Positions 862-28,158 of a stretch of 64,000 nucleotides of DNA are shown here, piece after piece. Position 1 is the stretch's first letter; each line of letters starts with the position of its first letter. This stretch comes from Giardia intestinalis (lineage: Eukaryota): assembly GCA_000002435.2 (NCBI GenBank), contig CM018792.1; one strand, 5' to 3'. The translations under genes were made by a program, and so were the position numbers. A model generated the notes under the pieces. That model saw only the letters and a program-made list of their open reading frames with translations, was not told where the DNA came from and did no database searches.

Positions 862-3744
862 ATGGATTTTCCACTGTCTCTTTTGGACGCAAATGTCAGC
901 AAGGCTATTTTCATCTTGCTTCAAGGGGAGCCCGAGCAAGCCTCCCTATGGTCACTTATCCTTCAACTGCGAACCCCCGGCCAGGGGTCCAGCTTCGCTT
1001 CTTGCGCATCGCTGATTTACAAAGACCTCAAGGGACTTAGCTCCTGGATTACCGAGGCTGCTTTTATTCCCTTTCTCAGACGTTTGGGATTTTGTTCATT
1101 GTATCTAAGTTATGGGCACGATGTTCTGCTCGAGCTTTTCAAGTACCCTATCGTTCTCACTTCGACTGTTTCAGGGAAGCGGGTGCTCCTTTCAGAGCCC
1201 CAGATGCCTCTTGCTTTCCCACCTTGCCTCCATGACAAATCTGTATCATCTATGGTTCGAGCTTCCACTGTGCAGTATGCTTCTAACTGTCTTGAGGAAT
1301 TCATTTCTATGATTCAAGAGCACCCCATGAACGTACGATTCATATTCTTCTGCAAGACCCGGCCCTACATCCGAGCATTCCACAGCTTGGCATTACTAGG
1401 ATCAGCAACGGCCATCTGGCACCTTTCTCTTCTTCCTTCACAGTGCCTTACTGCCTTTTATCAAGCCAATCCATTAGTCACATTTAAGTTCCCGTACAAT
1501 GCCTTTTCCACGCGCTCGTTTTCATCTTTGCTACAGCTATGCACATCCCGTGGTCGGCTGATGCCGAACAATGCTATTAATTCAAATGCTAAAGCTAGAA
1601 TAACAAGACTCATTTCCATTTTTCGTAGTAAGATGAAACGGTTAAGCCACAATCTTACGTTTCTGAAAGACAAGAAACCCCAATCTCTTTTGCAATCATT
1701 TGGCTTTGATACGCATTTTAGGGTATTCTTAGATGAAACAGGCACCCTTCGTCACGCCCCTCTGCCCTTATCTGTGCACAAAATAACTCTTTATCTCATG
1801 TTATATTGCAAGTCCATCAGCGCATTTTCTATTCTTGGCAAAAGGAACGCTCGAACATTTCACTCACATCTCTTTCGCTTTATTTCTCAGCCAATGAACG
1901 GGTTTATGACCTTGCAAGAGCTCACCTCTAGTATCTCTACAAAAGAATTCCTTCTCCCAGCAACCACAGTCAGCAAGGCCGAGGGAGAGGTGCGACATCA
2001 CCTTTTAGCGTACTTCGTTGTCTATCTCATGGACTTCGTCATACTTCCCGCCCTCTATCAGTCGTTTTCTGCTGTTTCTATGCACACGGAGCTTTCCAAT
2101 CGGATCGAGACGGCCAACTCTATGGTTCCTGCATTGCTTTCCCGCTCACTTTGGGTCAGCTACAAGAATTACTTGATTAAATCGTCTGCTCGTCTAGAAA
2201 TAGCGGCCACTTATGAATTTGTCTGCTCATTATCCAATTTGCACTCTATCCCTCTAACCAACGAAGATGCTGTGAACCGTATATTTTGGAAGCAAGTCTC
2301 TCCCGGTAGGCTATCGTTTGTCTATAAATCTAATGGAAGGGTGCGGCCCCTATGTAACTTTAGTTTTTGTAGCCGACGACACAGGGTCTCACTTAATTCC
2401 TTTCTTCGAAGCGCGCTCCAGGTCATCATATTTGAGCTAGAGCGCCCACGCAATAGGTACTTGCAAGCACATCTAGCCAAGAATCTAGGCCACATAGCAG
2501 TGGACTATGCTGCTTGGCTCGATGCGACGTACACAGAAAACCCCGAGGCGCAGATATACATGGTCACAACCGATATGATAACTGCTTTTGAAAGCGTCTC
2601 CGTTCCTCGCTTACTCTACTACATATCCCATTACATCGTTACTGGGAATGCTTACGTTGTCTTGACTTACAAGGAGATTGCTCCCAGTAAGATGCCTAAG
2701 ATTAGGACCGTTGCGCTGCCCTGCCAGCATAATGGGTGTGTATCCATGGATTCTATTTCCCGCTACCTTCTCTGCAAGGAGACCCCTAAAAAACAGCCTA
2801 ATTCTATGCTGTGTCCCATGCATGCACGAATCTATAAGCGAGAGGACATTATCAAGATGCTAGAGCTTCATCTTCTCAATCCCCTCGTTATTCACGAAGG
2901 AGGAGTATACCGTCTGACATCTGGGATACCCCAGGGCAGTGTCGTAAGCACTGTCCTTTTCAATTGCTATTCGTCTCTCCTGCACGTGCAACTACTAAAT
3001 ACAGGGATTGTTTCGTCCCGTCTCTTCTTTTACAGGACCTTTGTTGACGACTGGCTGCTATTAACTACGTCCATAGCATTACTTGACGCATATATCGAGT
3101 ACCTGAACATCATGCGTGATCATGGAGCCTACTTCAGATTGTCCTGCTTCACGAAGCCACACAAAAACAGCCCATTCGCTCCCATAGCTACATTAGACTG
3201 TTCTAGAGAACCCATACCAAAGAAAAGTCTTTACACACCCAATCTCAATCAAGATATGTACAAACTAGACGTTCCACGATATTGTGGATATATATTTCTT
3301 GAAAATGTTGCCATAATAGACGTACTGAAGTGGTTTTCATCAACGCGAACCAATGGCAGTCCGTCCTATCCCATGATTTTTGGATCTGGGATATCTGTCA
3401 TGCAGAGACTCAGGTTGGTTTTCAAAAAGAGAATCCGGGATCTCCGCTGTTTCATTGAGAGAAGCATACAGGCACCCGATCCGCGTATAAAAGTGGACGG
3501 CTCTATTCTTTATGCGTATATACGTGCTGTTACGTTTTGCATACTTTGCTACACACGAAACATAAGATACTCTGAGTCCTTGCGCACCCTTTTAAGGAGC
3601 ACATTCTGTTCTCTTAAGGCGACCGTGTGGAGACATTCTACATCCCGTGCTATATTTATCCACGTATCCAAACGCATTATTCTACATGTCTATGGTCACA
3701 ATCCCCGCATCAGAGGGCTTCTTCTGGGAATGCTAAGCAGGTAG
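862..3744 (+). CDS. TERT: Telomerase reverse transcriptase catalytic subunit
   Basis: ATG confirmed at 862. The translation carries the RT motifs in order: motif 1/2-like VYKSNGRVRPLCN; motif A YMVTTDMITAFESV; motif B' LTSGIPQGSVVSTVLFNCY; motif C FFYRTFVDDWLLLT. It is a 960-aa intronless ORF. Confidence 0.8.
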   Translation: MDFPLSLLDANVSKAIFILLQGEPEQASLWSLILQLRTPGQGSSFASCASLIYKDLKGLSSWITEAAFIPFLRRLGFCSLYLSYGHDVLLELFKYPIVLTSTVSGKRVLLSEPQMPLAFPPCLHDKSVSSMVRASTVQYASNCLEEFISMIQEHPMNVRFIFFCKTRPYIRAFHSLALLGSATAIWHLSLLPSQCLTAFYQANPLVTFKFPYNAFSTRSFSSLLQLCTSRGRLMPNNAINSNAKARITRLISIFRSKMKRLSHNLTFLKDKKPQSLLQSFGFDTHFRVFLDETGTLRHAPLPLSVHKITLYLMLYCKSISAFSILGKRNARTFHSHLFRFISQPMNGFMTLQELTSSISTKEFLLPATTVSKAEGEVRHHLLAYFVVYLMDFVILPALYQSFSAVSMHTELSNRIETANSMVPALLSRSLWVSYKNYLIKSSARLEIAATYEFVCSLSNLHSIPLTNEDAVNRIFWKQVSPGRLSFVYKSNGRVRPLCNFSFCSRRHRVSLNSFLRSALQVIIFELERPRNRYLQAHLAKNLGHIAVDYAAWLDATYTENPEAQIYMVTTDMITAFESVSVPRLLYYISHYIVTGNAYVVLTYKEIAPSKMPKIRTVALPCQHNGCVSMDSISRYLLCKETPKKQPNSMLCPMHARIYKREDIIKMLELHLLNPLVIHEGGVYRLTSGIPQGSVVSTVLFNCYSSLLHVQLLNTGIVSSRLFFYRTFVDDWLLLTTSIALLDAYIEYLNIMRDHGAYFRLSCFTKPHKNSPFAPIATLDCSREPIPKKSLYTPNLNQDMYKLDVPRYCGYIFLENVAIIDVLKWFSSTRTNGSPSYPMIFGSGISVMQRLRLVFKKRIRDLRCFIERSIQAPDPRIKVDGSILYAYIRAVTFCILCYTRNIRYSESLRTLLRSTFCSLKATVWRHSTSRAIFIHVSKRIILHVYGHNPRIRGLLLGMLSR

Positions 3745-6462
3745 CTACTTAACTTGTGTTAGAAACGAGCTTATAATATTATTGGTAGATGTAGAGTCAA
3801 AGGTTGCTGCTTCAAACTCTCCCTGAAGATCTGAGGACACTTTGCTTCTCTGGCTCAGTGCAGATAGAGACAGATGCCCATCAACCTCCTCTAGTAGCGC
3901 AGCGAAGCATTCATAGATCGCACTAGACACTATCCTGACAAGGTTAGATATCAGGGCCTCAGAGGCCATCAGAATAACTTCCTTCATTGCTTCCTCTGGG
4001 ATGCTTCCTTGTTCTGCCTTTCTTAGTGTCAACATAAACATCTCAAAACAGGTATCTACCTGGCAGTAAGCCTCTGAAAAAGCATCCATTCTTAGTTGTT
4101 CATAGTTATAGGAGGTTAGCGTTGACTCCTTTTTTAATTTATAGACAAGAACCTTGTAATCGGTGGAATCTTCTACCTGGATACTCCTATACTTAGGGTT
4201 TCCCAAGCATATAAGGCGCGCCAATATGGTGTAAAACGTATCTAAGCACAATGTGCTATGGGCCAGTGTGTTCAGCTCAAATCCTTTTGTTTCCAGTATT
4301 TCATTGCAAACAACGGCTATCAGATACGTTGTATTTGTTTTCTTGTTTGTTTTGTCCATCGTTGACAGATTTAGCGACGACTTACGGAGAAGAATATTAG
4401 ATTCCTCAAGCATATCCAAGACATTATGTGAGGACTCTTTGGCCAAGGGCTTAGTATACTCTTTGGACGATACGTCAGGAAATGACTTGTGGAGCTGCAT
4501 TCCTTTCGCCACTCCAAGAGGAAGATGTATCTGTGTTTTGCGTAAAGAGGACTCATAGATGCTCCAGATACTAGGCGAGTCGTCTCTGTCTTCTCTCTCG
4601 AGTTGCCCATCGGAGACATCATTCCTTGGTGAATCAGTTTGCATTGACGTTTCTACAGCATTGGGTCCGCGATCCTCGACAGCTGGTGCCTCTCTGGCCT
4701 GGTCTCCTATCTGGGCATCCAAGCCATACAACAGTGACGCAACAGAGATAAGTTGGGCAGACGGATCAACGGGCTGAATCTCTTGGGTGACAATGTCTAT
4801 GGCAGAAATCGGCCGCACTCGGACACCATCTGAGGTGGTACTTTCCACTTTGCTGCTTGTCCAACAAGGTTCAGATTTGTCGCCACTACTACCAGTTGCA
4901 CTGTCATCGGCTGCAAGCGGTCTATAAGCCTCTTGATTCAAACGATTAGATGTAAGTATATTCCTATTCAGGTTATGAACCGCTGAAAAGCTGACAGGAT
5001 CACACTGTGCGCAAGCGCGTCCAGATATGTTCTCCAAGGTATGACGCGGAGTGCCCTTGACTCTAAGAGACTCCACCCCATCTGGTACAGATGCACCTTC
5101 ACTGGCACTGTCCGATTCTCTCTTGTGACAAAAAGACTCATCGGTCTCTGACAAGGTGCCTATTTCGTTTCCACAGAACTTACAAAACAGAATGGAGGGA
5201 TATCTTTCTGCGCCAAAAGAGCCGCGAAATACCCTTCTGAGGCAGTCTTGGCAAATGCAGTTCGTATTCTGATATGTCTTTGAGGCGACGGATTGAGCCT
5301 TAGTGAATGTGATGCGTCTCGTTATGCATGCATAGTCTAAGGTCCGCTTAGTCTCCGTGGTGTTAGATGCGTTGACAGTGGCAAGAAAGGTAACATATCC
5401 ATTCTCAAATGGTGTGCGAAGAATTTTCGTGAGCATGGAGGCTCTGTAGGGGACGTGGTTCTTACGGGAGGCTAAGTCTTCCAATACTTTACGGAGAGTA
5501 AGAAGGCTCTTATTTATGTCTATGCCCTCTGCCAAACGTCGTTCTTCTCTGGCCTTATGACCGGGTGAATGTATGACAGAGGATCCAACGGCTCCAAAGG
5601 CATTGAACCGCTCAGAGCCCGCTAGATCACAAAAATAAATTTTCCCTAGAGGAGAGTAGCCGCCAGCAAGATTGGGGGGTTTGCAAAGAATTGTGATAAT
5701 GGCGAGAAAGTGGGAGCGCGACGAAACGTCGTTACGGACCGTCGACGCCGTCATCCGCTGCTTGCAGGCACTTTTAAGACAGGAGAATGCCTGCTGCAGT
5801 GTGTCGCAAACAGTCTCGGTGAGATTTTTGAAGGTACCTGTTGTTTGTTGAAGCTGGGGCATGGAGCCCGTATTAAGCTGAGCTAGTAGTGAAGAGAAAG
5901 AAGAGGTGTGGTAGAAACTCCTATCAGGATTGCTACTGTGGTCGATCATGACTGAATAGGGAGTATTGCTAGTTTGCAAGTCATAGAGTCTTTCGCAATA
6001 GACTTCAAGGAAGCTTAACTTTACCATGAAGCCGAGGTTATAAATGCGACGCAAACCCTGTATGATGAGTCCTTCTTTGTTAGACTGGAGCAGAGTAGGG
6101 TCCCAATCATTCCCTGGCTCAATGGGGGAGCTTTTCTTGGCAGAGAACCCTCGTTTGCGCCGAGTATCGCTCAGAAAAAGATGCTCATCTCCCAGAATGG
6201 TATATGTTTTGCCAGAGTTTGTCTGGCCATAAGCAATAACAGCAGATATGCATCCGCCGATGGCCTTATCAATCACAGGTGGTAAAATAGAGTCAGCTAC
6301 CTCTCCATTAGTAACTTCTTCGCTGAATAACTGGGGAATACCAAACAGTAGTTTGGCTCCATTATATGCCAGTCCTATCTGCCTGCCCTCGCTGACAAGC
6401 TCACAAGAGCGCTTTTCGGTGGAGAACAACGGTCTTGCACGAACAGCAACATGAATAGGCAT
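3745..6462 (-). CDS. Kinesin motor protein with an N-terminal motor domain and a long tail
   Basis: ATG at 6460-6462. Motor-domain motifs are present: P-loop GQTNSGKTYT; switch I SSRSH; switch II DLAGSER; and HVPYRASMLTKIL. It is 905 aa. Its stop codon directly abuts the TERT stop codon, so the two genes converge with zero gap. Confidence 0.85.
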   Translation of the reverse strand: MPIHVAVRARPLFSTEKRSCELVSEGRQIGLAYNGAKLLFGIPQLFSEEVTNGEVADSILPPVIDKAIGGCISAVIAYGQTNSGKTYTILGDEHLFLSDTRRKRGFSAKKSSPIEPGNDWDPTLLQSNKEGLIIQGLRRIYNLGFMVKLSFLEVYCERLYDLQTSNTPYSVMIDHSSNPDRSFYHTSSFSSLLAQLNTGSMPQLQQTTGTFKNLTETVCDTLQQAFSCLKSACKQRMTASTVRNDVSSRSHFLAIITILCKPPNLAGGYSPLGKIYFCDLAGSERFNAFGAVGSSVIHSPGHKAREERRLAEGIDINKSLLTLRKVLEDLASRKNHVPYRASMLTKILRTPFENGYVTFLATVNASNTTETKRTLDYACITRRITFTKAQSVASKTYQNTNCICQDCLRRVFRGSFGAERYPSILFCKFCGNEIGTLSETDESFCHKRESDSASEGASVPDGVESLRVKGTPRHTLENISGRACAQCDPVSFSAVHNLNRNILTSNRLNQEAYRPLAADDSATGSSGDKSEPCWTSSKVESTTSDGVRVRPISAIDIVTQEIQPVDPSAQLISVASLLYGLDAQIGDQAREAPAVEDRGPNAVETSMQTDSPRNDVSDGQLEREDRDDSPSIWSIYESSLRKTQIHLPLGVAKGMQLHKSFPDVSSKEYTKPLAKESSHNVLDMLEESNILLRKSSLNLSTMDKTNKKTNTTYLIAVVCNEILETKGFELNTLAHSTLCLDTFYTILARLICLGNPKYRSIQVEDSTDYKVLVYKLKKESTLTSYNYEQLRMDAFSEAYCQVDTCFEMFMLTLRKAEQGSIPEEAMKEVILMASEALISNLVRIVSSAIYECFAALLEEVDGHLSLSALSQRSKVSSDLQGEFEAATFDSTSTNNIISSFLTQVK

Positions 6463-7231
6463 AAAAAGCTCGGGTTGCGCTTATCTCTTGGTTTTGCGTC
6501 GCTGAATGAGTCTTGTTAAAATAATTGAATAGGTTGGAAAATGTCGTTTTTTGGGGCGCTCAAACGCTGAGGGCATTCTACAATGCTCTTCCATAATTTG
6601 ACTTCTGTCACAGAGGAGACTGCCAGCAGCGTAGTTAGCAATGTTGAAAAGTGGCACGACATCTTTGGGTCCATAGCTTCCGTAGTAACAATAGATAATG
6701 CTAGCACGGCCCCCTGTGCACGGCGCTGTGGAGGGGTCATGGATGGGCGCTATAGTGATCTAGAAACCTATTATGCCTGTAGAGTAGCCCGCAACTCAAC
6801 CAGGACACCTGATCTGCACAATATGCAGCGCAGAAAAAGGGCGTGCTTACTTTTTTAAGGGAGGCCCGGCCACTGGAAGGAAGCACTTTCTTCGATGCCA
6901 CAAGAGTATTGCAACGATGTATCCAATGGTGGATGAGGCGTCCCGGAAGGAGCGTGAAATGGCGTTGAGATACTTTATAGATGAAGCAAGGCAAAAGAAA
7001 CAGTGTGCATGGCCCAAAGGCTCTAGTGCTGATCCAGTTGGTAGATGTTTATGCGATGCAATTCTCGCCCACGGGCTTGCTTATTCTCAAGGCCCAGTCA
7101 TTAAGTAGCTACTCACAAAGGTTATCAATGTTGTGGCTAGGATCGAAGGGTATTCTCCTGAGCTTCAGGATAAGCTGCTGCGAGCAGTTTCTGTGGCACG
7201 GATATCTAGAAGCACCATCCAGCGACGTGGA

Positions 7232-8818
7232 ATGAAGCAATATGCCCTCCATAAGGAACTGGTTCAGAAAGCAGTAGAAGGTGCAGACGGATATAGTATC
7301 ATTTTAGGAATAGTGTCATGTGGAGAGGGGCTGCGTCTTCTTGTAGCAATGAATTGTCTTTGGCCAGGAGCTGGCTCAATTCAAACCCTATTGTGTGGTC
7401 TTCCTAGCCTCCCGCCTTGTCCGGAATCAAGGGATATATTACGTGCACTCTTTCAAAGCATAGGTGCAGCGGATTGCATGCCAGATATGGCCCAACGACA
7501 CCATACTTTTCTTCATAAACTGACCTTGATATCTATTTATGAAAGCTCTAATTTGAAATACGATGAGGTTAAGCAAGCATTAAGGAAAGCAAGACAGGAC
7601 GTTGTGGAAGATGTGCCTCTCCCAGTCTTTAAGGTTATCTTATTTCCTCAACTTTCCTTTCTTAGAGACGCTTTAAGTGTGCACTGTGATTTGTTTACCG
7701 TCGTCACCGTACTCTTAGAGAGCTTGGTTGACACTGCACCAGATGGATGGCATCTTGATGCTGCGGAAGCTGATTGCTCCACTAATGCCTTTAACTTTGA
7801 TAGTGGCGAGGTCAAAGAGGATCGTTTATGGGGTGAAATGCGCACTCTAATCACTAAGTTTTCTGAAGCACAACATCAGCTGGATTATTTGTCGTTGATT
7901 GATCTGAAGGCAATCTTAAGATTGATTCGGGAGCATAAAGAAACACTCATTCACACAATGATGGCCGTATCCGTGACTAATCCTCTGTCGCAGCAATGCA
8001 TACCTAGTCTTACTGACTCCAAGTGGCTCCAACATGCACACTTTATAGAGGGCCTTGTAACGCTGTTAGCTCCGTTTGAAAGCATGCTGACCGCACCGAA
8101 TGCATGCGCCTTTGATGTATATGCCCACCTTGATAGACTTCGCTCGATTCTCCGTGACGCTCGCGACATGCTGCCATGTGCTGTACCCGACTTTCTATCC
8201 ATGGATCGGAAGTGTGCCAGAGCGCTCCACAGCGATAATATAGCGCCAGAAGAGGCGCATTTTTACTTTACTATACTGTCAATCTACATAGATGAGATAG
8301 ACTCAATCCTGGATTGCTACTCTCCATATGTTTCCGGCTTCAAGTTATGCACATTCACGCTAGGCACTGTCACTCTTAGCGAGATAACAAGCAGCTTAAG
8401 TAGCCTTCCCTGCAAACTAACCAACTTAGCCCAGATAGCGGAGGAATATTATTTTATATACCAATCCGAACAGATTGCAGATTGCCTTAGTACACTACAA
8501 AGTGTCAACCGATGTGAAGATGTATATGAGCATTGGAAGACTCTTGTTACTTTCTGGTCTAGGTTGTTACGTGAGTACTCATTGGCTAGCAGGCTTATGT
8601 TACTTCTGCTGACCGCATTTTCCACCCCGGCCATCTTCCTTGCTTCGAAGACTGTAATAAGCAGCGCTTTGTCTGCCCAGCGGTCCTGTCTAACAGAAGC
8701 GAACTCAGAGGCTGCTCTTCTTTTGCATCTAAAACATGGCTTCATAGTAAAAACATTGTTCAAATTTATATTAAAACAGCCAATTGGAGGCGGCTTACTT
8801 AGAGATGGAGCCGAATAG
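7232..8818 (+). CDS. Hypothetical protein. The annotated start at 7133 is GTG; the first in-frame ATG is at 7232. The frame also continues upstream into ORF 6917-7108 across a single TAG.
   Basis: The 561-codon ORF has non-repetitive, helical-looking sequence. I verified GTG at 7133-7135. ORF 6917-7108 is in the same frame and is separated from it only by TAG at 7106-7108. No family is recognised. Confidence 0.45.
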   Translation: MKQYALHKELVQKAVEGADGYSIILGIVSCGEGLRLLVAMNCLWPGAGSIQTLLCGLPSLPPCPESRDILRALFQSIGAADCMPDMAQRHHTFLHKLTLISIYESSNLKYDEVKQALRKARQDVVEDVPLPVFKVILFPQLSFLRDALSVHCDLFTVVTVLLESLVDTAPDGWHLDAAEADCSTNAFNFDSGEVKEDRLWGEMRTLITKFSEAQHQLDYLSLIDLKAILRLIREHKETLIHTMMAVSVTNPLSQQCIPSLTDSKWLQHAHFIEGLVTLLAPFESMLTAPNACAFDVYAHLDRLRSILRDARDMLPCAVPDFLSMDRKCARALHSDNIAPEEAHFYFTILSIYIDEIDSILDCYSPYVSGFKLCTFTLGTVTLSEITSSLSSLPCKLTNLAQIAEEYYFIYQSEQIADCLSTLQSVNRCEDVYEHWKTLVTFWSRLLREYSLASRLMLLLLTAFSTPAIFLASKTVISSALSAQRSCLTEANSEAALLLHLKHGFIVKTLFKFILKQPIGGGLLRDGAE

Positions 8819-11800
8819 GCGCTTGCGATACTTCAGGTCTGAAATACCACAGCCCGTCACGGAGCACCGCTTTCCCAAGCGCGTGGAGAAGCTTGTTTTC
8901 TCAGTGTTGTCATCGAATGCCCTCATGAAGTTGTCCGAGGTTCAAATCACAACACCGATTCTTTACGAGCACTACCCCTCCCCAGCAACCAACGGGGTGC
9001 TGGACAAAAGGCTTGGTCTATCGGACAAAGTTGGAAAGTGCGCGACTTGCGGCAAGGACACGAAAATGTGCATAGGACACTTTGGAACAATTTCCCTGGC
9101 CCTTCCTGTCTTCCATCCTGGCCTAATCAACGATGCAAGAACTATGCTCTCTATTGTCTGTCCGTTTTGCAGCCGCGTAAAGATCTCTGAAGCCGACAGA
9201 CTCAAGTACAAGGTTCTAAACCACAAGTTTTCTCTTGCCATTGTCAAAGAAGCCCAGGAGCAGGCGAAGAAGCAGGTGAACTGCCCGTTCTGCCATGCCC
9301 CAAGCACAATTTGCAAGAAATCACAGGGATTCCGGGTTCTAAGAGAGATGCATTACGAAGAGCGTGCTACTAAGATTCTTGCAGACGTCATCAAGCACCA
9401 GAAGGATATTGAAAAGATCCAAGAGCTTGACCAGCGGCTTCGGAATCACGTTGTGGATCCAATACAAGCACTTCACATCCTCCAGAAGGTTCCCGAGTGC
9501 GACTATCCCTACCTAGGAATACCCTGGCAGTCAAGAAACGTGTATGCGTCCCAGCAAACCCCTGATTCTATTGCCAGCAATGACGCTAGCCAGTTATTTT
9601 CCAGAGGCTCGTCCAAGCTACTCGCAAGAACGGCGAGTCGCTTTATTGCACAGCATCAGGGGATAAGCGATCGTGCCACACGTTTAACATCTCATGCCTT
9701 CCTGACCAGGCCTCAAGACGTTATTTTGACTCATATCCCTGTGCCTCCGTCTTGCCTCCGCCCCTCTGTACAATCAGGGTCTGGTGCTGGAACAACAGAA
9801 GACAACCTCACTTCCCACCTTGTTCGCATTTTAACCATTAACGACAAACTGAAGGAAGCGATGGTCTCCGGGGCCGTAGCAACCTCAAAAGTGTATGCAA
9901 AATGGGATCAGCTTAATATGGACGTTTCTCTACTATATATAGGGAAAATCCCAGGCGGCGTGCAGCCTGTGAAGAATAAGACGGATTCTGGCACCAAAGA
10001 GGGAACGGGGATTATTGATAGGCTGAAGGGAAAAGCAGGAAGATTTAGGTCTAACCTCAGCGGAAAACGGGTCAACTTCAGTGGGAGGACTGTCATTTCT
10101 CCAAACCCATACCTTTCTATGCAGCAGGTGGCAATTCCCCGCCTCATCGCCCAAAACCTTACCTTTCCAGAGATAGTAACGTCTCGGAATATTCGCTTTT
10201 TACGTGAGCTTATTCTTAATGGGAAGACCTATCCGGGAGCCAATGAAGTTCTTCTATTGAACGACACCATTAGATACAATCCAGCACTCAAGCGGCTCGG
10301 AATTGACGTGAAGCAAAGCCGAGATATGGAGGCAAAGGCTATGGAACTGGTTTCGCGCTGTGTTGACACGTTTAATCTCAATTCGCTTTGTGCAGACCTC
10401 CCAGAGCTCCAGGCTGCCATTCAGCACCTTGTTAGCGAGTCCAGTAACGCAATAAATAGTGAGCTCAAGGCAGAAGATCTGCCACAGAACCAGCCGCTTT
10501 TTGCCAAGGAGGTGTATGATCCAGCACAGAAAGGTGAATCAAACAATATAGACAACAACGTTTGTGAGATAGATGAGCTGAAGCTTGAAGACACAGCTGA
10601 TTATCAGGTAGGTGAGTCAGCTGGCCAAGCTTCAACTGTTGCAGTCGAGCAGCCACCGGAGTCAAGGACCGTTCTAAAATTGAACTCAATCGCATCGTTG
10701 CAGCTTACCAACGCGTCGTCACAGCACCTATCGACCTTCAAATTAAACACTGTTTCTCTGCTCCAAAAAGATCGCCGTGGGCGCCAGGCTATTGCCAATA
10801 GTCTCAGGCCCAACGACATAGTTTATCGGCATTTGCTTCCCAACGATACTTTACTCTTTAACCGTCAGCCGTCCCTTCACAGAATGTCAATCATGCAATT
10901 TAATGCAGTTATACACGAAAACCGTACTTTTTCTTTCAATCCAGTTGTCTGCTCTCCATTTAATGCAGATTTCGACGGGGACGAGATGAATATCTTTTAC
11001 ATGCAAGGCCAGGAGGCGCGTGCTGAAGCGGGGATCCTCATGGGCTCTCACGAAAACATTATTTCGCCACGACATGGAGAATGCATGATTGGGCTCACGC
11101 AGGATTTTCTAACAGGAATCTACCTTCTCAGCGGCAAGGGCATCTTCATGACACGCCAAGAGTACTGCCAGCATGTGTCCTATGGCTGTGATGGCTTTGG
11201 GGATGCCACATATGGTGTTAGTTTGTACAACTATGGTCGCGAGTTCATTAAAAGCATTCATGACAGGAGAGGTACAGAGGAAGACACCGTTGGGTTTGTT
11301 AAGGTCCCCTGTCTTTCACAGCCATGCATAGTGTACCCTCGACAGCTCTATAGCGGAAAGCAGGTGCTCTCTGTTCTCATGAAGGGAAACGATTTTGACT
11401 CTGTGAACATCAATCTAGAGCACGGTGACAAGACATACAAGAAAGACAGTGACAGGCGTGCACTCTCCGTCAACGATGACTATATCATCATCCAGAATTC
11501 AGAGCACCTCGTAGGGCGTCTCACCAAAACGTTCTTGGCATCGTCCAAGAATTGCATATTCTATTTTTTGGTACAGAACTATGGTCCTGTTTCAGCAGCT
11601 CGCATCATGCTCCGCTTCGCCAAGGTGGCTGCTAGATTTCTTATGAACTATGGCTTCACCATAGGCATAGATGATGTAATGCCATCCCAGCGAGTGCTGG
11701 GTAAGAAGGAGGTAATAGTTCAGGAAGGTTATGAGAAGGCGCAGGAAAAGATCCGTGACTACGAAAGCGGAAAGCTAGAGGCTATACCTGGGTCTACTGT

Positions 11801-14030
11801 GCAAGAGACGCTTGAAGCAACACTTAATCAGATCCTGTCCAACGTCCGCGAGTCCTGCGCCCAAATAGCTCTCAAGGAGCTTCACTTCACCAATAAGCCT
11901 CTCATCATGTCACTCTGTGGGAGCAAGGGAAGCCCCATCAACATCGCCCAGATGATTATTATTCTTGGACAACAATCCTTTGGAGGATCTAGGGCGCCTG
12001 ATGACTTCTACACTCGCTCAACTCCATATTTCTATCATTATTCAAAAGAGCCGAACGCAAAAGGGTTTATCCTGAACAGCTTTTATACTGGCTTGCTTCC
12101 ATTTGAATTCTTAGCGCACGCACGAGCAGGCCGAGATGGGGTCATTGACTCTGCCTGCAAAACAGCAGATACAGGGTATTTGCAGCGACGGCTTGTTAAG
12201 TGTCTAGAGGATCTTAGTGTGTCATATGATTTTACCGTGCGCAACAGCAAGAAGAGCGTGGTGCAATTCCGGTTTGGACACGATGGGTTTGATCCAATAA
12301 AGCTCGAAGTTGGGACTGGGCAGTGCTTCGATCTAGACACTTTGCTCAGACATATAATCTTGCTTAACAGATCACAAGATCTGGCCGAGGGGGCCTTCCC
12401 TGTTCTTCTGGATCGGTACAAGGCAGAGGCAGAGCTAGACGTCCTCCTGAACAAAGACTTTTACGGCCAGGAGGCTTGTTTGATTGAAAGAAGCAATGTC
12501 ACTAGCTATTTCCAGCAGAGCATATTGCCAAAATTAACTACGAACACACACATCGCCACTACTGTGGCCCCAGCACTTGCAGCATCATTCCTCCAAACAA
12601 CCCTTACCAAAAAGGACATAGATGATTTTCTAAGGCAGGTTCGGCGAAAGTACATTCGCCTGAATCTGGAACCGGGATCTCCATGCGGTGCGGTGGCCGC
12701 CCAGTCAGTCGGGGAGCCCTCCACTCAGATGACACTGAAGTCATTTCACCACGCAGGCTTAGCTTCCATGAACATAACGCAAGGGGTCCCACGGCTGAAA
12801 GAAATTGTCGATGGTGTGGTAAAGATATCCACACCAATCACAACCGTGGAGCTCCATGTAGATGTAGATAAGGAGGAACTGGCAGCAACGGTGACAGAAA
12901 AATATCTTGAAAAAGCGCGCATGATGAAGAACATCATCGAATGCACGTACCTTGGCCAGATATCTGCATCCATTATCGAGTGCTACAGCCAATCAGTTTG
13001 CCACATTGAAGTCAATTTGGATATGAAAATAATCGCAGACATGGGGCTTGCTGGGATCATAACGGTAGAGACGGTGGTAGCGTCCATCTTACACAACGAT
13101 AAGGCGAAAAAGCTAGTAGGACAGGACCAATCTTCTGGATCGGTAAGCATACACAGTGCCACAAGGTTCTCTGTCCGCCCCTTGACGCAGTCCAGAGACG
13201 ACTTGCTCTTCGACATTCAGAGCTTGAAGTTACTCCTTCCAATGATACCCGTTTCTGGCATATCTACTTGTAGTCGCGCGGTGATCAATGAGTATAAAGA
13301 GTTCTGCCAAGGCGCCACAAGCAGTGCACCGCTAACTAAGTACAATCTCCTTGTGGAGGGTATTGGGTTACAAAACATCCTAAATGTCAGTGGAATTGAC
13401 TTTACACGCACTCTGTCCAATAATATCGTAGAGGTAGCAAATACTCTTGGGATAGAGGCTGCAGTGGCCACAATATCCAACGAGATAAAGGCCTGTATGG
13501 ATAGCCATGGTATGGCCGTAGATATGCGACATATCCGCCTTCTTGCAGACATTATGTGCTTCAGGGGCCGAGTGCTAGGCTTTACAAGGTTTGGCTTGAC
13601 AAAGATGAAGGCCGATTCCGTAATCATGCTTGCAAGCTTCGAAAAGACTGGTGAGCACCTGTTTAATGCTGCACTAGGGAATAAGGTTGACGAAGCAAAC
13701 GGTGTTACAGAGTCTATCATACTAGGGAAACCGATGAGTATGGGAACAGGATCATTCTCGCTATTGCAGGCACCGTACTTTGATGAAAAAACGGGCAAGA
13801 CGATTGAGTACCAGCCTAAGCAGACAACCCGCTTTCTAGGGGAGGTCCTAAATAAACAGTACGATGAAGAGGTGGACGCTATAGTTAACGCGTTTTGGTA
13901 CGACGAAAAGCTTTATCTAACGGGTGCGGAGGCTAAGGCAAAGCTTCTTCGTGGAAGGCGGCATGCAAATAAGCGCTCCTGGTCGCGGGGAAAAGAAAGA
14001 CACGCTAGTTTGAAGCCAAAGAATCGATAA
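8805..14030 (+). CDS. RPC1: DNA-directed RNA polymerase largest subunit, best fitting Pol III RPC1 (C160)
   Basis: The first ATG is at 8805 because the track start at 8784 is TTG. Zinc-clamp region: CATCGKDTKMCIGHFG. Catalytic loop: LLFNRQPSLHRMSIM...NADFDGDEMN followed by EARAEA...LMG and TQDFLTG. Bridge helix: GRDGVIDSACKTADTGYLQRRLVKCLEDLSVSYD. C-terminal GTGSF. The EDLS..YD, TQDF.TG and LFNRQPSLHR.SI. patterns match Pol III C160 better than Rpb1 or A190. There is no CTD heptad array. Confidence 0.75.
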   Translation: MEPNRRLRYFRSEIPQPVTEHRFPKRVEKLVFSVLSSNALMKLSEVQITTPILYEHYPSPATNGVLDKRLGLSDKVGKCATCGKDTKMCIGHFGTISLALPVFHPGLINDARTMLSIVCPFCSRVKISEADRLKYKVLNHKFSLAIVKEAQEQAKKQVNCPFCHAPSTICKKSQGFRVLREMHYEERATKILADVIKHQKDIEKIQELDQRLRNHVVDPIQALHILQKVPECDYPYLGIPWQSRNVYASQQTPDSIASNDASQLFSRGSSKLLARTASRFIAQHQGISDRATRLTSHAFLTRPQDVILTHIPVPPSCLRPSVQSGSGAGTTEDNLTSHLVRILTINDKLKEAMVSGAVATSKVYAKWDQLNMDVSLLYIGKIPGGVQPVKNKTDSGTKEGTGIIDRLKGKAGRFRSNLSGKRVNFSGRTVISPNPYLSMQQVAIPRLIAQNLTFPEIVTSRNIRFLRELILNGKTYPGANEVLLLNDTIRYNPALKRLGIDVKQSRDMEAKAMELVSRCVDTFNLNSLCADLPELQAAIQHLVSESSNAINSELKAEDLPQNQPLFAKEVYDPAQKGESNNIDNNVCEIDELKLEDTADYQVGESAGQASTVAVEQPPESRTVLKLNSIASLQLTNASSQHLSTFKLNTVSLLQKDRRGRQAIANSLRPNDIVYRHLLPNDTLLFNRQPSLHRMSIMQFNAVIHENRTFSFNPVVCSPFNADFDGDEMNIFYMQGQEARAEAGILMGSHENIISPRHGECMIGLTQDFLTGIYLLSGKGIFMTRQEYCQHVSYGCDGFGDATYGVSLYNYGREFIKSIHDRRGTEEDTVGFVKVPCLSQPCIVYPRQLYSGKQVLSVLMKGNDFDSVNINLEHGDKTYKKDSDRRALSVNDDYIIIQNSEHLVGRLTKTFLASSKNCIFYFLVQNYGPVSAARIMLRFAKVAARFLMNYGFTIGIDDVMPSQRVLGKKEVIVQEGYEKAQEKIRDYESGKLEAIPGSTVQETLEATLNQILSNVRESCAQIALKELHFTNKPLIMSLCGSKGSPINIAQMIIILGQQSFGGSRAPDDFYTRSTPYFYHYSKEPNAKGFILNSFYTGLLPFEFLAHARAGRDGVIDSACKTADTGYLQRRLVKCLEDLSVSYDFTVRNSKKSVVQFRFGHDGFDPIKLEVGTGQCFDLDTLLRHIILLNRSQDLAEGAFPVLLDRYKAEAELDVLLNKDFYGQEACLIERSNVTSYFQQSILPKLTTNTHIATTVAPALAASFLQTTLTKKDIDDFLRQVRRKYIRLNLEPGSPCGAVAAQSVGEPSTQMTLKSFHHAGLASMNITQGVPRLKEIVDGVVKISTPITTVELHVDVDKEELAATVTEKYLEKARMMKNIIECTYLGQISASIIECYSQSVCHIEVNLDMKIIADMGLAGIITVETVVASILHNDKAKKLVGQDQSSGSVSIHSATRFSVRPLTQSRDDLLFDIQSLKLLLPMIPVSGISTCSRAVINEYKEFCQGATSSAPLTKYNLLVEGIGLQNILNVSGIDFTRTLSNNIVEVANTLGIEAAVATISNEIKACMDSHGMAVDMRHIRLLADIMCFRGRVLGFTRFGLTKMKADSVIMLASFEKTGEHLFNAALGNKVDEANGVTESIILGKPMSMGTGSFSLLQAPYFDEKTGKTIEYQPKQTTRFLGEVLNKQYDEEVDAIVNAFWYDEKLYLTGAEAKAKLLRGRRHANKRSWSRGKERHASLKPKNR

Positions 14031-16041
14031 TATTGCGTTTCTGTTCATCACTTAAGCTACACGTGCACAGAATCTTTTCTGCGTGAGCAACTGTAACTCT
14101 CTCGTATGGAAGAAGCCTTGTGATCACGTCTATGTGCCCCTTCTTGAGGGCGAGCTCTATGGCAAGTTCACCGCTCTTTGATCGCATCCCTGCTTCCCTG
14201 GTCGCCAAAGCTGCCACACACTCCGGCTTGTTGTGTATAGCAGCCAGAATGAGAGCTGTATAGCCAGACTTATTAGCCATTCCTCCCTCTTCCTCCAGTA
14301 AGCAGTGGACAACGTGTGGATGGCCGCCCATGGCTGCTGCCATGAGTGCTGTTTTAAAGCTGTGTGTGTCACGATAGCGAGCCTCGTACGGCAGGAGAAT
14401 CTGAACAACCTCCTTATATCCATGGTATGCCGCAATCATCATTGCAGTGGCATTTTCAAAGCTAAGTCCATAGAAAACCCTGCTCTGCATGCGCATTCCG
14501 GCCTCATACTTGGCCAAATAGCGAACGCTTTCTACATTATTACAGCGAGCCGCAAGCATTAACGCAGACATGGATTGGCAGTTGAGCCTTCCCAAGAATC
14601 TATGGAAGAGCCCTAGGCTCTTATATTTGTTATGATAAGCTAGCTCATGGAGAGGAGTGTTGCCGCTATCATCTGAAATTGTCTCTAGGGGCACCAGTAT
14701 CCTGTAAGCGTCTTGGTTGTTAAACTTGATGGCATAGTTAATAGCAGCGAGCCCATCGAGGTCGCGAAGGCCGGATTCTATGGACACTAGCAACTGCACC
14801 GCCTGCGAGTCCCCTACTATAACTGCCATCATCAATGCAGTAAGGTTTCTGTGGGTCAATCGCAAGTGGTGACTGTCGACCAAGTTTTGCAGTAGGTCAC
14901 GGCGTTCAGGACTATGAAAGTAGGCAGAGTCATAGTCATATCTCATGATATGCATCATAAGCTCTGTGTACCCTGCAAAGCTTAGAGCCAGGCGTTCTAG
15001 AGGTAGCAATGCTCTGACTAGCTCCAACCTACCTGATAAAAGAGCATGCTCAGTGGCACAGCACCCATGCATATCAACATGCCCCGCCTCACACGCTGCT
15101 AGCGCGTAGCAAGAACAATAGTTTCCGTTGGTCACTGCTTCCATCAGGGCTGTAGTACCGCGATCGGTCTTAACTCCAGCATCGAAAAGTCTGCGAAGGA
15201 GCACGTTACAAACATCATCATTTGTAGCAGCTTCTATTAACTGTGTCTTGTGCTTCTGCGGAAAGTCGCTCATATGCAGATGCAGACAGAGTCGCTTATA
15301 CCGCTCTTCCACAGTCCTTGCTGCTTTAAGCTCAAGCAGACCAGTTCTTTCAGCGGAGCTGTGCTCCATTGCTAGACATATCTCCTGCACAACAACTTTC
15401 GGGAGCTTGGTGAAGGAAACAAGGGCTAAGTAGTTATCTCGTCGGTCCGATGAGTAAACCTCCGGATACGGACCAGAAAGAGCTACGCTGAAAACTGTTG
15501 CAGCTACAATCCAGGGCACGGTGTCTGGACAGAAAAAATCTCTAGAGGATACATCGAGAGGTGCATTATCTGCCTCAATTCCCAACTCGGTCAGCATTTG
15601 GAGAGTCGCCAAAGAGGCAGAGCAGTCACCTGGGCCTGTCCAATTCCTAAAGCACAATCGGAAGACGATTCTCCCTATCCTGGTAACATACATTTTAGAA
15701 AGACAAAAGAGCCTGGTAAACACGTCATGCTGCCATTCTTCGGGGACGCTTTCTACCAGATAATTAGCGAGAATGACGAGTTGACAAAACAAGTCTTCGA
15801 CAAACGCGGAGTCCGGAGGCTCACAGATGTTAATGCACGTTTTACAATACTCCGCGAGAGACTGCTCCCCGCCCCACATGCACGAAACAACAATACAGCT
15901 ACTCCCAGCCTCGTCATCTAGCACGTCTTGAATCGGCACCAGGTGGCAGCATCGTAGCCTACCAAGGCATGAGATAGCCTCCATGAATGCATCCAGTGAT
16001 GTGTCTGTCATGTGATGATAAGAGCTTATCTCCCCCCACAT
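14005..16041 (-). CDS. Ankyrin-repeat protein of the Giardia 'Protein 21.1' type with a degenerate kinase-like N-terminal region
   Basis: It carries multiple G-x-TALM-x-A ankyrin repeats (TALMEAVTNGN, TALMAAAMGGHPHVV, YTALILAAIHNK). The track start at 16119 is TTG, and the first in-frame ATG is at 16039-16041. The 3' end overlaps the RPC1 3' end by 26 nt. Confidence 0.7.
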   Translation of the reverse strand: MWGEISSYHHMTDTSLDAFMEAISCLGRLRCCHLVPIQDVLDDEAGSSCIVVSCMWGGEQSLAEYCKTCINICEPPDSAFVEDLFCQLVILANYLVESVPEEWQHDVFTRLFCLSKMYVTRIGRIVFRLCFRNWTGPGDCSASLATLQMLTELGIEADNAPLDVSSRDFFCPDTVPWIVAATVFSVALSGPYPEVYSSDRRDNYLALVSFTKLPKVVVQEICLAMEHSSAERTGLLELKAARTVEERYKRLCLHLHMSDFPQKHKTQLIEAATNDDVCNVLLRRLFDAGVKTDRGTTALMEAVTNGNYCSCYALAACEAGHVDMHGCCATEHALLSGRLELVRALLPLERLALSFAGYTELMMHIMRYDYDSAYFHSPERRDLLQNLVDSHHLRLTHRNLTALMMAVIVGDSQAVQLLVSIESGLRDLDGLAAINYAIKFNNQDAYRILVPLETISDDSGNTPLHELAYHNKYKSLGLFHRFLGRLNCQSMSALMLAARCNNVESVRYLAKYEAGMRMQSRVFYGLSFENATAMMIAAYHGYKEVVQILLPYEARYRDTHSFKTALMAAAMGGHPHVVHCLLEEEGGMANKSGYTALILAAIHNKPECVAALATREAGMRSKSGELAIELALKKGHIDVITRLLPYERVTVAHAEKILCTCSLSDEQKRNIIDSLASN

Positions 16042-16281
16042 AGGCGCACCTGTCACCCGAGAGAGGAGGACGCACGATCCTTCTTCCGGGCCACTCAAAA
16101 TAAGCACATAGCTCTCCAAAGGAGAGACTCTTTTGATCGTCTCCCCCCTTGCTTCTGCAGTGCGACTTACGGCAGGCTCCAGTGCTGAGGGATGAAGAGA
16201 CTACAATCAACACCCAGTGGCAAAAATAAACGATATTAATTTCACTTTTGTAACTCAAAAAGACACCCTCTCGAACTAGCA

Positions 16282-24683: not shown

Positions 24684-27566
24684 CTATGACAATAAACGTA
24701 TAAATGCGTCCCGCAGTTGAGGGTTGGTAGAGCCAGAGTACCTTTTAAGCCTCTCCAAAGCAGAAAGACCGCGAGTGTCCTCTAGGGCTTTTTCCCGTGG
24801 TGCTAGGATCTCTGCACACTCAAAGTTCTGGAACTCTACAGCATAGATTAGGGCTGTGCAGTTGTCGTCTTGTGCGTTTTGGACTCCTGCTTCATATGGA
24901 GCTAACAGCCTCACCATAGTTACGTCTCCTGCTACCGCTGCCCACATAAGCGCGGTGTACCCCTTGCCATCTTGGCGCCTCTTTTCGTGGTCTATCAGGA
25001 GAAGGCAGCATTCCACATTGCCGTTCTTAGCTGCGCGTATCAACGCTGTTTCACCCTTCTTGTTGTGGAGGCCTGCCTCTGTCGTGCACAGCAGTTTTAC
25101 TGCGGAGAGGTTGTTGTTGGAAACTGCGTGAATAAGAGACGTGTTGCCATCCTCATCCTTTTCACGGCTTTGGTACGGCAAAAGGCAAAAGATTTTCAGT
25201 ACATCCCCCTCTATTGCATACCTCATCATCTCCGTGCGCGGGCCTTTCCGAGATGTGCCACTTTCTGTAATATTAGTGGGCATCTGTGTTATGTTCTGAA
25301 CATCACAGTAGCTAGACTCCAGGCCCCGGAGAAGCTCTGCTGTCTCGAAATGCTCACTCCGTAGCGCTAGTATTAGAGCTGTATCCCCGTTGTCTAAACA
25401 CATCCCACACTCCAGAGGCGCAAGTATCGAGACAGCACCCTTATTATCTCTTTCACAGGCAAACATAAGAGCCGTGTAGCCGTTAGTTAAGGCACACCCT
25501 GCATATTCCATGTGTCGAGGTATGTCATGGTTATGCCGAAAGAGAACAGCGTCCATCAAGGGTGTATGTGTCGACCACCTTTTAGAGGATGCCCTATTCT
25601 TCGATGCAATCAGCATCCATTCATCTAAAGGCGACCTGGCGTCTTCTCTCTCATGATTGGGAGTAGTGTCCAGCATTCTCCGCGTACCTCTGGGCCCTGG
25701 TGAGGGCTGTACCTTTGGTGATTGAGTAGCAGGAGGTCTGATGTTGGAAGATTTCAGCCTCGTACTGGTATGGACTACGGACCGTGTTGGTGTTGGCAAT
25801 GTGTGGGCCCTTTCTATGGGCCTGGAGACTTGTGGGGTGCCTGGACTTGCCTTGCTCCCTCTGCCTCTGGAGAGTACGCTGTTCTCTGAGAGAGGTGATG
25901 CGATTGACCTCCGAATCGGAGTAGATGATTTTGGTTTGCTAGTTGTCACTCCCAACGTATTCTGCGGAGTATTCTGCAACAGAATTCCTGGGTTCAATAC
26001 GTGTGGAGACCGTATCAAATTATCCACCGTTGTGTTACACAAAGATATAGAGTTTTCATAACTTTGGATAGTTCTTTTCAACTCTTCATTTTGCCGTGTC
26101 AGCGCCTTTATTTGCTCATCCCTTTGTGTTATATTGGCTTGCAGTGAGCTAATAAGCTGTGCTTGCTGTACGCATTTTTGTGATATCACGTCTATCTCAT
26201 GTAGTCTATTTTGTTCTAGTGACATCTCTGTGGAGTCTGCATCGCTCTGTCTTGAGTACACACTGCTATTTCGATTAGGTGTGATGCTGTCTGCTCTCTC
26301 TGTGATGTGGATTGATGGAAGTTCAGACTTCACCAGTTGCTGTGCCGCCGCAAGCAATGTGGAAAGGTTTTCAAAAGGTGCGGACTGGCACAGCACGGCA
26401 ATCTCTTCTCCTAGTGAAGCATTAATAGCTCGGAGAGATGCATTTTCCTTTTGAAGTGTCTCTCTTTCAACACCGTGAGCCTTTGTGATTTCAGCCATCT
26501 TCACCTCCAAATTCTCTATTTTGGACACGAAGATTGTCGCTTGCTCTTCATTCTGACGCTGCTGTGCTTCTAGCTCACGCTGCCGGGCAGCTACTTCTGT
26601 TCGGAGGGCTTCGATATTGCTATTCTTCTCCGCCATCTGGGCCTCTGTGAATATTGGATAGAGCGTTTGGATGTGCTCATTTTTGTTGTGTACTGCAGAG
26701 TCACGAATGCAGCCGAGTAAGTCGGCATTGGTTTGTCGAGGTTCTGGTGTTGCAAATCTGTCAGAACAGCGGGGCCTGTGGGGCTCGTGAATAGTGGCAT
26801 CGTGACCAGAAATGTTGCTACTAGATTCGCTGGTTACCAGCTGAGCACTTTGAAGAAAAGACAATGAGTAAGTATCCTCTTCAATCCCCGAAAGTTGGCA
26901 AGTGGAGGTGGGGTCGGGGTGGGCAGTGCCCCTGCAAGGCTGCTGCTCTACAGTCGAAGCATCCCAAATGCTAACATTGGGGGTCAAGGAGAGCTCTAAG
27001 CCATGGTTCTGGTTAGACTCTGTCACACAGATCTCTTGGTTGGTGGCCAGGCTTTCTGATTTTAAAGACTGCTTTTTCACTTCACAGTGTACCCCTCTAG
27101 TACTTAGTTCGTGTAGAATAAGGTGCTGGATGGGCTCAGATGTTGTAGGGATCATGCGGTCGTACACACATTGAAGATCTTCGAGAGCCAGGCCAGGATG
27201 CCGGAGAAGAATCCTTAAGGACGGTACATCCTCTCGTTGGACAGCGATATCCAGGGCTGTTAGCCCTGCTTTGGTATGTCGAATACTCGTGTAAGCCAAC
27301 AGAAGTGCCAAGGCCTTACATGCTCCAGATTGAGCAGCAAATATGAGGGCATCTTCATTGTTATCCGTGCAGACATCAACCTCTGAAGGTATCAAAATGC
27401 TCGCGAGATTGGCATTGTTCATTCGGCACGCAATCATGAGTGCGGTTTCTCCTGCCTCTGTGCGGGTTCTAGCATGAATTTTTATCATTTCACTCACAAG
27501 TGAGATGTCGCCGCACTTAACTGCGTTGAACCAATCGTGCTGGGCCGGATCTAAAGGAGCATCCAT
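24684..27566 (-). CDS. Ankyrin-repeat protein (21.1 type) with a central coiled-coil region
   Basis: The track start at 27608 is TTG, and the ATG is at 27564-27566, giving the typical 21.1 N-terminus MDAPLDPAQHDWFNAVKCGDISLV. Ankyrin repeats occur at both ends (ETALMIAC, TALILAL, YTALMWAAVAG). The middle is long and heptad-rich (EAQQRQNEEQ..., LEEQ...). Confidence 0.75.
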   Translation of the reverse strand: MDAPLDPAQHDWFNAVKCGDISLVSEMIKIHARTRTEAGETALMIACRMNNANLASILIPSEVDVCTDNNEDALIFAAQSGACKALALLLAYTSIRHTKAGLTALDIAVQREDVPSLRILLRHPGLALEDLQCVYDRMIPTTSEPIQHLILHELSTRGVHCEVKKQSLKSESLATNQEICVTESNQNHGLELSLTPNVSIWDASTVEQQPCRGTAHPDPTSTCQLSGIEEDTYSLSFLQSAQLVTSESSSNISGHDATIHEPHRPRCSDRFATPEPRQTNADLLGCIRDSAVHNKNEHIQTLYPIFTEAQMAEKNSNIEALRTEVAARQRELEAQQRQNEEQATIFVSKIENLEVKMAEITKAHGVERETLQKENASLRAINASLGEEIAVLCQSAPFENLSTLLAAAQQLVKSELPSIHITERADSITPNRNSSVYSRQSDADSTEMSLEQNRLHEIDVISQKCVQQAQLISSLQANITQRDEQIKALTRQNEELKRTIQSYENSISLCNTTVDNLIRSPHVLNPGILLQNTPQNTLGVTTSKPKSSTPIRRSIASPLSENSVLSRGRGSKASPGTPQVSRPIERAHTLPTPTRSVVHTSTRLKSSNIRPPATQSPKVQPSPGPRGTRRMLDTTPNHEREDARSPLDEWMLIASKNRASSKRWSTHTPLMDAVLFRHNHDIPRHMEYAGCALTNGYTALMFACERDNKGAVSILAPLECGMCLDNGDTALILALRSEHFETAELLRGLESSYCDVQNITQMPTNITESGTSRKGPRTEMMRYAIEGDVLKIFCLLPYQSREKDEDGNTSLIHAVSNNNLSAVKLLCTTEAGLHNKKGETALIRAAKNGNVECCLLLIDHEKRRQDGKGYTALMWAAVAGDVTMVRLLAPYEAGVQNAQDDNCTALIYAVEFQNFECAEILAPREKALEDTRGLSALERLKRYSGSTNPQLRDAFIRLLS

Positions 27567-28158
27567 AAGAAATTTTAGAGCGTGCCCGGAAATAATACTT
27601 AGACGCAATTTACATGTCTGCTTCAGCCACCAAGTTGTTCACATGCGCCAGGCAATTGTCTAGGGCACCCCTTGTCTTCGCAATAATGGTTATTTGGAGC
27701 TTCTCACCCTTACTCTCCCCCGGGCGAAGCACCGTAGCATCGAAGGCTTGGCTGAGATACTCAATTGTCTGTGCCTTAAGCAACTGGCGCTTGGCACTTG
27801 CAGAGAGATTGCTTATATCCAGCACAACTTGGGCTCCTGGAAGGTCGCAGATCCCAAGAGCCGCAGCCGTCCGCACTGCAGAATGATACTCGGGAGGTAA
27901 GGAATACTGGGCCGACAACGGGTATATGAAGTTTGGAGACAGAATGTGGAGAGTGGGGTGGAGTGATGGTTGTACCTCTTCTCTGCCATTCTCACTAGCT
28001 AAACCGGTGTTGCGTAGGTTCTTTATGTTAGCCAGGCCATGTCCCGTCCGTACTAGAGGAACAAATGGGGGGTGCTGGCCAAGTTTCTGTTGCGCTAAGT
28101 AGACTGTGTGTTAGTGTTTGCAGGTCCCTCCTTTTTTTGCTGTTTCCCCAACCTCAAA

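Follow-up and report, generated by a model that had tools for sequence, protein, structure and literature searches.

What does a long block of extra residues do in the largest subunit of a eukaryotic RNA polymerase, and is it a working part of the enzyme or a harmless expansion? This question is raised by a gene of Giardia intestinalis that lies in a stretch of 64,000 nucleotides (nt) of contig CM018792.1 (NCBI GenBank assembly GCA_000002435.2), referred to here as the window. The gene, at 8805..14030 of the + strand, codes for the largest RNA polymerase III (Pol III) subunit, RPC1 or C160; all of its features described here lie on the same strand, and residue numbers (aa) are those of its product. 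We found that a net insertion of 162 residues interrupts a beta-hairpin of this protein in Giardia and its nearest relatives, and that it is made of two strongly conserved parts, A and C, separated by a fast-evolving acidic loop, part B. Our preferred reading, to which we give a probability of roughly 60%, is that parts A and C would constitute a small, clade-specific interaction domain on the dock surface of the polymerase, with part B as a flexible acidic loop, in an insertion that is real and tripartite.

A 162-residue insertion in a conserved beta-hairpin

Giardia RPC1 was aligned by MAFFT with 120 RPC1 homologues, and 115 of the aligned sequences fall outside the Giardia-like clade. Two anchors frame the region of interest. 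The first, YPGANEVL (aa 476-483, nt 10230..10253), forms the outgoing strand of the hairpin; it begins with the YPGA motif itself (aa 476-479, nt 10230-10241), its residues P477, G478 and A479 are invariant, and aa 479-483 are modelled as a strand by AlphaFold2 (AF2), the predicted local distance difference test (pLDDT) score being ~90. The second, LFNRQPSLH (aa 684-692, nt 10854..10880), is invariant in the alignment. The window protein has 204 residues between A479 and L684, a number shared by two other G. duodenalis lineages; G. muris has 152, and two further Giardia-like relatives have 232 and 223, against 40-53 (mode 42) in the 115 RPC1 sequences outside the clade. A first-pass annotation of the window, which had put this spacing at about 200 residues, was accurate on this point.

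Pairwise comparisons place the interruption at the same site. When the protein was compared with human RPC1 by phmmer, query residue 482 paired with human 421 and residue 659 with human 436, leaving query 483-658 unaligned opposite 14 residues; with yeast C160, residue 492 paired with yeast 443 and residue 660 with yeast 449, leaving query 493-659 unaligned opposite 5 residues. The net insertion is therefore 162 aa by either comparison. The Pfam model of Rpb1 domain 2 is also broken into two stretches around it, the second of which (aa 659-746) restarts at model position 77. The returning strand of the hairpin occupies aa 649-658 (nt 10749..10778), with an AF2 strand at aa 649-651 and the phmmer alignment restarting at query residue 659/660. 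Taking the predicted hairpin strands as its limits, the insertion extends over aa 484-648, nt 10254-10748. The first-pass annotation had thus recognized a genuine insertion; its size of about 150 residues and its position at 10290-10800 need correction, the limits lying ~40-50 nt further upstream. The segment is open only in the frame of the gene, the other two frames of the + strand holding 10 and 15 stops.

An extra segment of this kind might in principle be an intron left unspliced, an intein, an error of assembly or annotation, or a product of misalignment, an origin for which we find no supporting point beyond the length of the segment and its absence of homologues. Because the anchors are invariant on both sides, the additional 162 residues are independent of the alignment method, and phmmer, Pfam and MAFFT all split at one site. 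Furthermore, the in-frame segment recurs in independent assemblies, from assemblages A, B and E, a fourth G. duodenalis-like lineage, G. muris and two further lineages, and its parts A and C bear the mark of purifying selection at the protein level. We consider an artefactual or non-protein origin extremely improbable, and as judged from these coding sequences the insertion is real and translated.

Two elements were looked for by their own signatures and rejected. A Giardia spliceosomal intron would carry characteristic splice sites, and neither a GTATGT donor nor a CTRACACRCAG-type branch/acceptor occurs in nt 10201-10860; in parts A and C, moreover, the ratio of nonsynonymous to synonymous substitution (dN/dS) lies far below 1. 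As regards an intein, Pfam found no Hint domain, and on reading the sequence we found no junction with an N-terminal Cys/Ser and a C-terminal His-Asn followed by Cys/Ser/Thr.

Distribution of the insertion

The lineages that carry the insertion are G. duodenalis assemblages A, B and E, the fourth G. duodenalis-like lineage (P0002), G. muris and two further Giardia-like lineages (P0004 and P0005). The fornicate Aduncisulcus paluster and every other eukaryote in the 115-sequence comparison lack it, and the earlier description of the block as lineage-specific is upheld. The P0004 and P0005 sequences come from Sequence Read Archive (SRA) assemblies with a compact gene arrangement and a GC content of 60% and 67%; since they use both TAA and TAG as stops, these lineages do not use the Hexamitinae genetic code. 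Loci L001 (SRR31929897) and L002 (SRR14944320), from two lineages of this GC content (60% and 67%), are intron-poor and use the standard genetic code; their RPC1 genes carry all three Giardia-type insertions at 45-47% identity, and they look like relatives of Giardia. The RPC1 proteins of Spironucleus, Hexamita, Trepomonas and Kipferlia were not among the best 120 matches of a fornicate-weighted profile query, and a fragment query returned short proteins only.

Beyond this clade the insertion has no detectable relative. A profile built from the insertion alone and run against 1.84 billion representative proteins recovered nothing but three proteins from which the profile had itself been built, together with a piece of the window protein 102 aa long. 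This piece (P0121) matches window aa 572-655 exactly, after which its sequence is unrelated; most likely it stems from a frameshifted open reading frame (ORF) called on a short contig from the same assemblage. Pfam searches with the insertion (E up to 10) gave chance matches alone, with E values of at least 0.1, and the best hit of a sequence-profile search of the PDB was an unrelated 'H3 Protein' with E = 0.002, which we treated as noise. No description of the insertion was found in the searchable literature.

Two conserved parts and a fast-evolving loop

Regional values of dN and dS were calculated by the Nei-Gojobori method from the coding DNA of relatives, and the insertion was divided into three parts according to identity, substitution rates, charge and AF2 prediction. 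Part A (aa 484-545, nt 10254..10439) is a conserved, predicted-helical module of ~62 residues, delimited by identity, dN and AF2. Among three G. duodenalis lineages its identity is 95-98%, and its dN of ~0.02, against a saturated dS (>1.4), equals the dN of the segments that flank the active site. Compared with G. muris it retains 54% identity, the value for the whole gene being 57%. It contains the motif CVDTFNLN (aa 519-526, nt 10359..10382), in which C519, D521, N524, L525 and N526 are invariant across six insertion-bearing lineages, defining a CxDxxNLN pattern (alignment columns C39, D41, N44, L45 and N46). Part C (aa 626-648, nt 10680..10748), recognized by identity and AF2, is a conserved segment of ~23 residues with a predicted helix; from its start through the returning strand (aa 626-658) the assemblages are 97-100% identical. 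In parts A and C dN is ~0-0.03 against saturated dS, and these rates indicate that purifying selection on both parts is as strong as the selection acting on the catalytic core.

Part B (aa 546-625, nt 10440..10679) is an acidic and polar loop of ~80 residues, predicted to be disordered from its pLDDT, and it changes rapidly: among G. duodenalis lineages identity is ~45%, dN ~0.4 and dN/dS (omega) 0.24-0.29. Between assemblages A and E (P15) identity is 95.5% for the whole protein, 98% for part A, 71% for part B and 100% for part C; between assemblages A and B (ATCC 50581) the corresponding values are 90%, 97%, 46% and 100%. The first-pass annotation had drawn attention to an acidic or polar stretch, which is indeed present, starting with ELKAEDLPQ at aa 553 (nt 10461), but this proved to be the least conserved part of the insertion, while the segments on either side of it are as conserved as the core. 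In spite of the turnover of its sequence, part B has a net negative charge in six lineages, with values of -10 (window protein), -11, -15, -3, -15 and -3; the charge is -3 in both G. muris and P0005.

Several of these properties are those that would be expected if a surface loop of the dock had simply grown by slippage or insertion and persisted because it does no harm, having no specific function. Part B evolves fast (omega ~0.25-0.3), varies from 30 residues in G. muris to 95 across lineages, is compositionally biased and is predicted to be disordered. The protein carries two more clade-specific insertions and a C-terminal extension, which could reflect a general tendency to expand, and the lack of a homologue among 1.84 billion proteins, in Pfam and in the PDB would also fit such an origin. 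Nevertheless, an essentially neutral expansion does not account for the conservation of parts A and C at the level of the catalytic core across saturated synonymous divergence, for the retention of part A in G. muris at the identity of the whole gene, or for a motif that is invariant in six lineages. Because of this conservation it suits part B and not parts A and C, and for the insertion as a whole we regard neutral growth as possible, though rather unlikely.

Predicted structure and position on the polymerase

Residues 300-800 were modelled with AF2 from a 53-sequence alignment, giving a mean pLDDT of 64. The strands at aa 479-483 and 649-651, with block means of ~90, flank the insertion in this model. 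Helices are predicted in the region of part A at aa 485-490, 493-497, 506-519 and 532-557 (pLDDT 52-75), and in part C at aa 628-641 (pLDDT ~62-65); between them aa 558-626 are predicted to be disordered (pLDDT <50). Parts A and C may pack together. A second run with the insertion alone, from a 5-sequence alignment, gave much the same secondary structure with a mean pLDDT of 41, and this isolated model was kept out of the fold comparison because of that low score. A fold search with the model of aa 300-800 matched Pol III, archaeal and Pol II largest subunits, Pol III being the best.

The insertion had been placed between the clamp and the active-site loop, a region that can now be narrowed to a beta-hairpin tip within Pfam Rpb1 domain 2, the site of emergence being bounded by residues 421 and 436 of human RPC1 and by residues 443 and 449 of yeast C160. 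By alignment, the interrupted hairpin corresponds to approximately residues 434-455 of yeast C160 and 415-440 of human RPC1. By the domain map of Rpb1 we take it to be the hairpin at about residues 405-420, putatively in the dock domain; explicit residue limits for the dock domain were not found in the searchable literature.

Identity of the gene and its other additions

The gene lies in an ORF at 8784..14030 that opens with TTG; its first ATG, at 8805, gives a product of 1741 aa ending at a TAA stop. By exact-sequence look-up this product is 100% identical to UniRef100_P25202, P25202.1, XP_001709578.1 and KAE8303672.1, and the P25202 entry bears the title 'DNA-directed RNA polymerase III subunit RPC1, Giardia intestinalis'. 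Presumably that entry goes back to assemblage A isolate WB and to a sequence paper of 1992. Pfam finds the five Rpb1 domains in canonical order (PF04997, PF00623, PF04983, PF05000 and PF04998, E 1e-29 to 1e-75). In a phmmer search of all PDB chains the protein scored 938 bits with human RPC1 and 893 bits with yeast C160, compared with at most 577 bits for Rpb1, ~519 for archaeal Rpo1N and ~419 for RPA1/A190, and all the named proteins among its best 120 database matches are RPC1. A Pol II heptad-repeat C-terminal domain was not found: YSPxSPx does not occur in the protein, nor does an SP dipeptide in its last 150 residues. Because of the 360-bit gap in score and the identity to a curated entry, we regard the assignment to the Pol III largest subunit as secure. 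The first-pass annotation had reached the same class from three motifs, TQDFLTG and LEDLSVSYD among them; these are present, as is NADFDGD, yet the three motifs it used do not by themselves single out Pol III, and it is the full-length scores that carry the assignment.

Compared with animal and fungal RPC1, the Giardia protein shows 40-43% identity across the conserved blocks. Like RPC1/C160/POLR3A proteins of solved structure (human 7a6h, 7ae1 and 7d58; yeast 5fj8 and 6eu0), it keeps the five Rpb1 domains, the catalytic NADFDGD motif (aa 720-726, nt 10962..10982), which was located in the sequence and is conserved in the alignment, LFNRQPSLH and other invariant residues. It had been described as unusually long, and so it is: the lengths of 115 other homologues lie between 1310 and 1938 aa (median 1401), and the protein exceeds a typical RPC1 by ~350 residues. 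Most of this excess consists of the 162-aa insertion, two others of 57 and 34 aa, and a C-terminal extension; smaller additions also contribute. The 57-aa insertion (aa 238-300, nt 9516..9704) raises the spacing from L237 to P303 from 8 to 65 and is 76-83% identical between assemblages. The 34-aa insertion (aa 793-836, nt 11181..11312) raises the spacing from D796 to P840 from 9 to 43; with 93-98% identity between assemblages, it also looks constrained. The C-terminal extension (aa 1658-1741, nt 13776..14027), of ~84 residues with a basic tail, is 75-78% identical between assemblages. All three have the same clade distribution as the insertion in the putative dock hairpin.

Neighbouring genes

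Upstream of RPC1, an ORF of 561 aa without a Pfam match (7133-8818, + strand) ends 14 nt inside the RPC1 coding sequence, which starts at 8805; in the related locus L005 a gene call likewise overlaps the RPC1 start (1-636 against 626). From this repeated overlap we conclude that adjacent same-strand genes overlap in this compact genome. Further upstream, on the opposite strand, lies a kinesin-motor gene (3745-6462, - strand), which is also found there in assemblage B and in G. muris (L003 1-2352; L006 518-2905) and represents conserved synteny. An ORF of 960 aa at 862-3744 (+ strand) matches PF12009, the telomerase RNA-binding domain, weakly but above threshold (E = 8.5e-7), and on this match it is probably the Giardia telomerase reverse transcriptase. 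Downstream, a 704-aa ankyrin-repeat protein is coded convergently to RPC1 (14005-16119, - strand), the two 3' ends overlapping by 26 nt; L003 and L005 show this arrangement as well. Ankyrin repeats also occur in the ORFs at 24684-27608 and 30215-32824. The downstream synteny differs in G. muris and in the L002 lineage, where a ribosomal protein S10 gene follows RPC1.

Discussion

If the interrupted hairpin is part of the dock, parts A and C would form a small extra domain on the surface of the polymerase, adjoining the binding site of the Brf1 zinc ribbon and the RNA exit, and part B would be a tether or loop, flexible and acidic. The Brf1 zinc ribbon touches the Pol III dock, and its linker goes into the RNA exit channel (PMC6066478); contacts between the B-ribbon and the dock are a general recruitment interface of archaeal and eukaryotic polymerases (PMC10881513), and nascent RNA is led along the dock (PMC7111264). 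Placed there, the module might provide a clade-specific interaction surface for a divergent Giardia machinery of Pol III initiation or RNA handling, whose divergence shows in the failure to detect Rpc31 or homology to Bdp1 in Excavates (PMC1540719).

Several points weigh against this interpretation. The dock label depends on the alignment with yeast and human RPC1 and on the domain map of Rpb1, and not on a superposition. AF2 confidence within the insertion is moderate (pLDDT 52-75), and the mean falls to 41 when the insertion is modelled alone. Part B is mostly deleted in G. muris, and parts B and C align poorly in P0005, the most distant relative. Finally, the strong conservation of parts A and C could stem from constraints of folding or packing instead of dedicated binding.

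The acidic loop calls for separate consideration, since acidic segments act near this site in other polymerases. In human apo Pol III the acidic tail of RPC7 lies near both the cleft and the exit channel for RNA, close to the modelled BRF1, and it has been likened to the acidic expander loop of Pol I (PMC8837262). Rpc31 has been found only in plants and unikonts and in none of the Excavates, Giardia included, where homology to Bdp1 was not detected either, and the acidic C-terminal end of Rpc31 matters in initiation (PMC1540719). Like the RPC7/Rpc31 tail and the expander of Pol I A190, a DNA-mimicking loop, part B is acidic and predicted to be disordered, and would be tethered near the RNA exit side; unlike them, it belongs to another subunit and position, has no sequence similarity to them, shows weak conservation and is greatly shortened in G. 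muris. On these parallels, and on the negative charge retained in all six lineages, part B might itself be functional as a nucleic-acid mimic or as an auto-inhibitory or initiation element beside the RNA exit channel. Given that its charge drops to -3 in G. muris and P0005, that it is the least constrained part of the insertion, and that acidic disordered loops are common and usually non-specific, we think such a role improbable. A more far-reaching proposal would make the dock insertion an integral replacement or adaptor for components of Pol III initiation that are missing or divergent: the helical module with its CxDxxNLN motif would bind a Brf-type factor or a clade-specific partner, and the acidic loop would assume the auto-inhibitory and initiation role of the Rpc31/RPC7 tail; we offer this as a speculation with a small chance of being correct.

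Our preferred reading, an extra domain formed by parts A and C, has to be seen against what is common among polymerases. The protein and its class have long been public, lineage-specific insertions in polymerase subunits are commonplace, and the present one is a better-characterized example of a familiar phenomenon. Insertions in the bacterial beta and beta' subunits have reportedly been catalogued by Lane and Darst. The Giardia block resembles these in being restricted to a clade, in its putative position at a surface loop between universally conserved regions, and in leaving the catalytic motifs unaffected. It differs from them in that its host is a eukaryotic Pol III subunit and its site the putative dock hairpin, and whereas many bacterial insertions use a recurring fold, no relative was detected for this one in Pfam, the PDB or 1.84 billion proteins.

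The value of these results consequently lies in a better-defined target for deletion or structural work, and not in a new principle. At the dock every archaeal and eukaryotic polymerase is recruited by TFIIB-like factors, and there too the transcript leaves the enzyme. A conserved extra module at this place, in an organism with a reduced and divergent basal transcription apparatus, would provide a handle on the recruitment and regulation of Pol III in Giardia, and, since the host lacks it, the segment is in principle parasite-specific.

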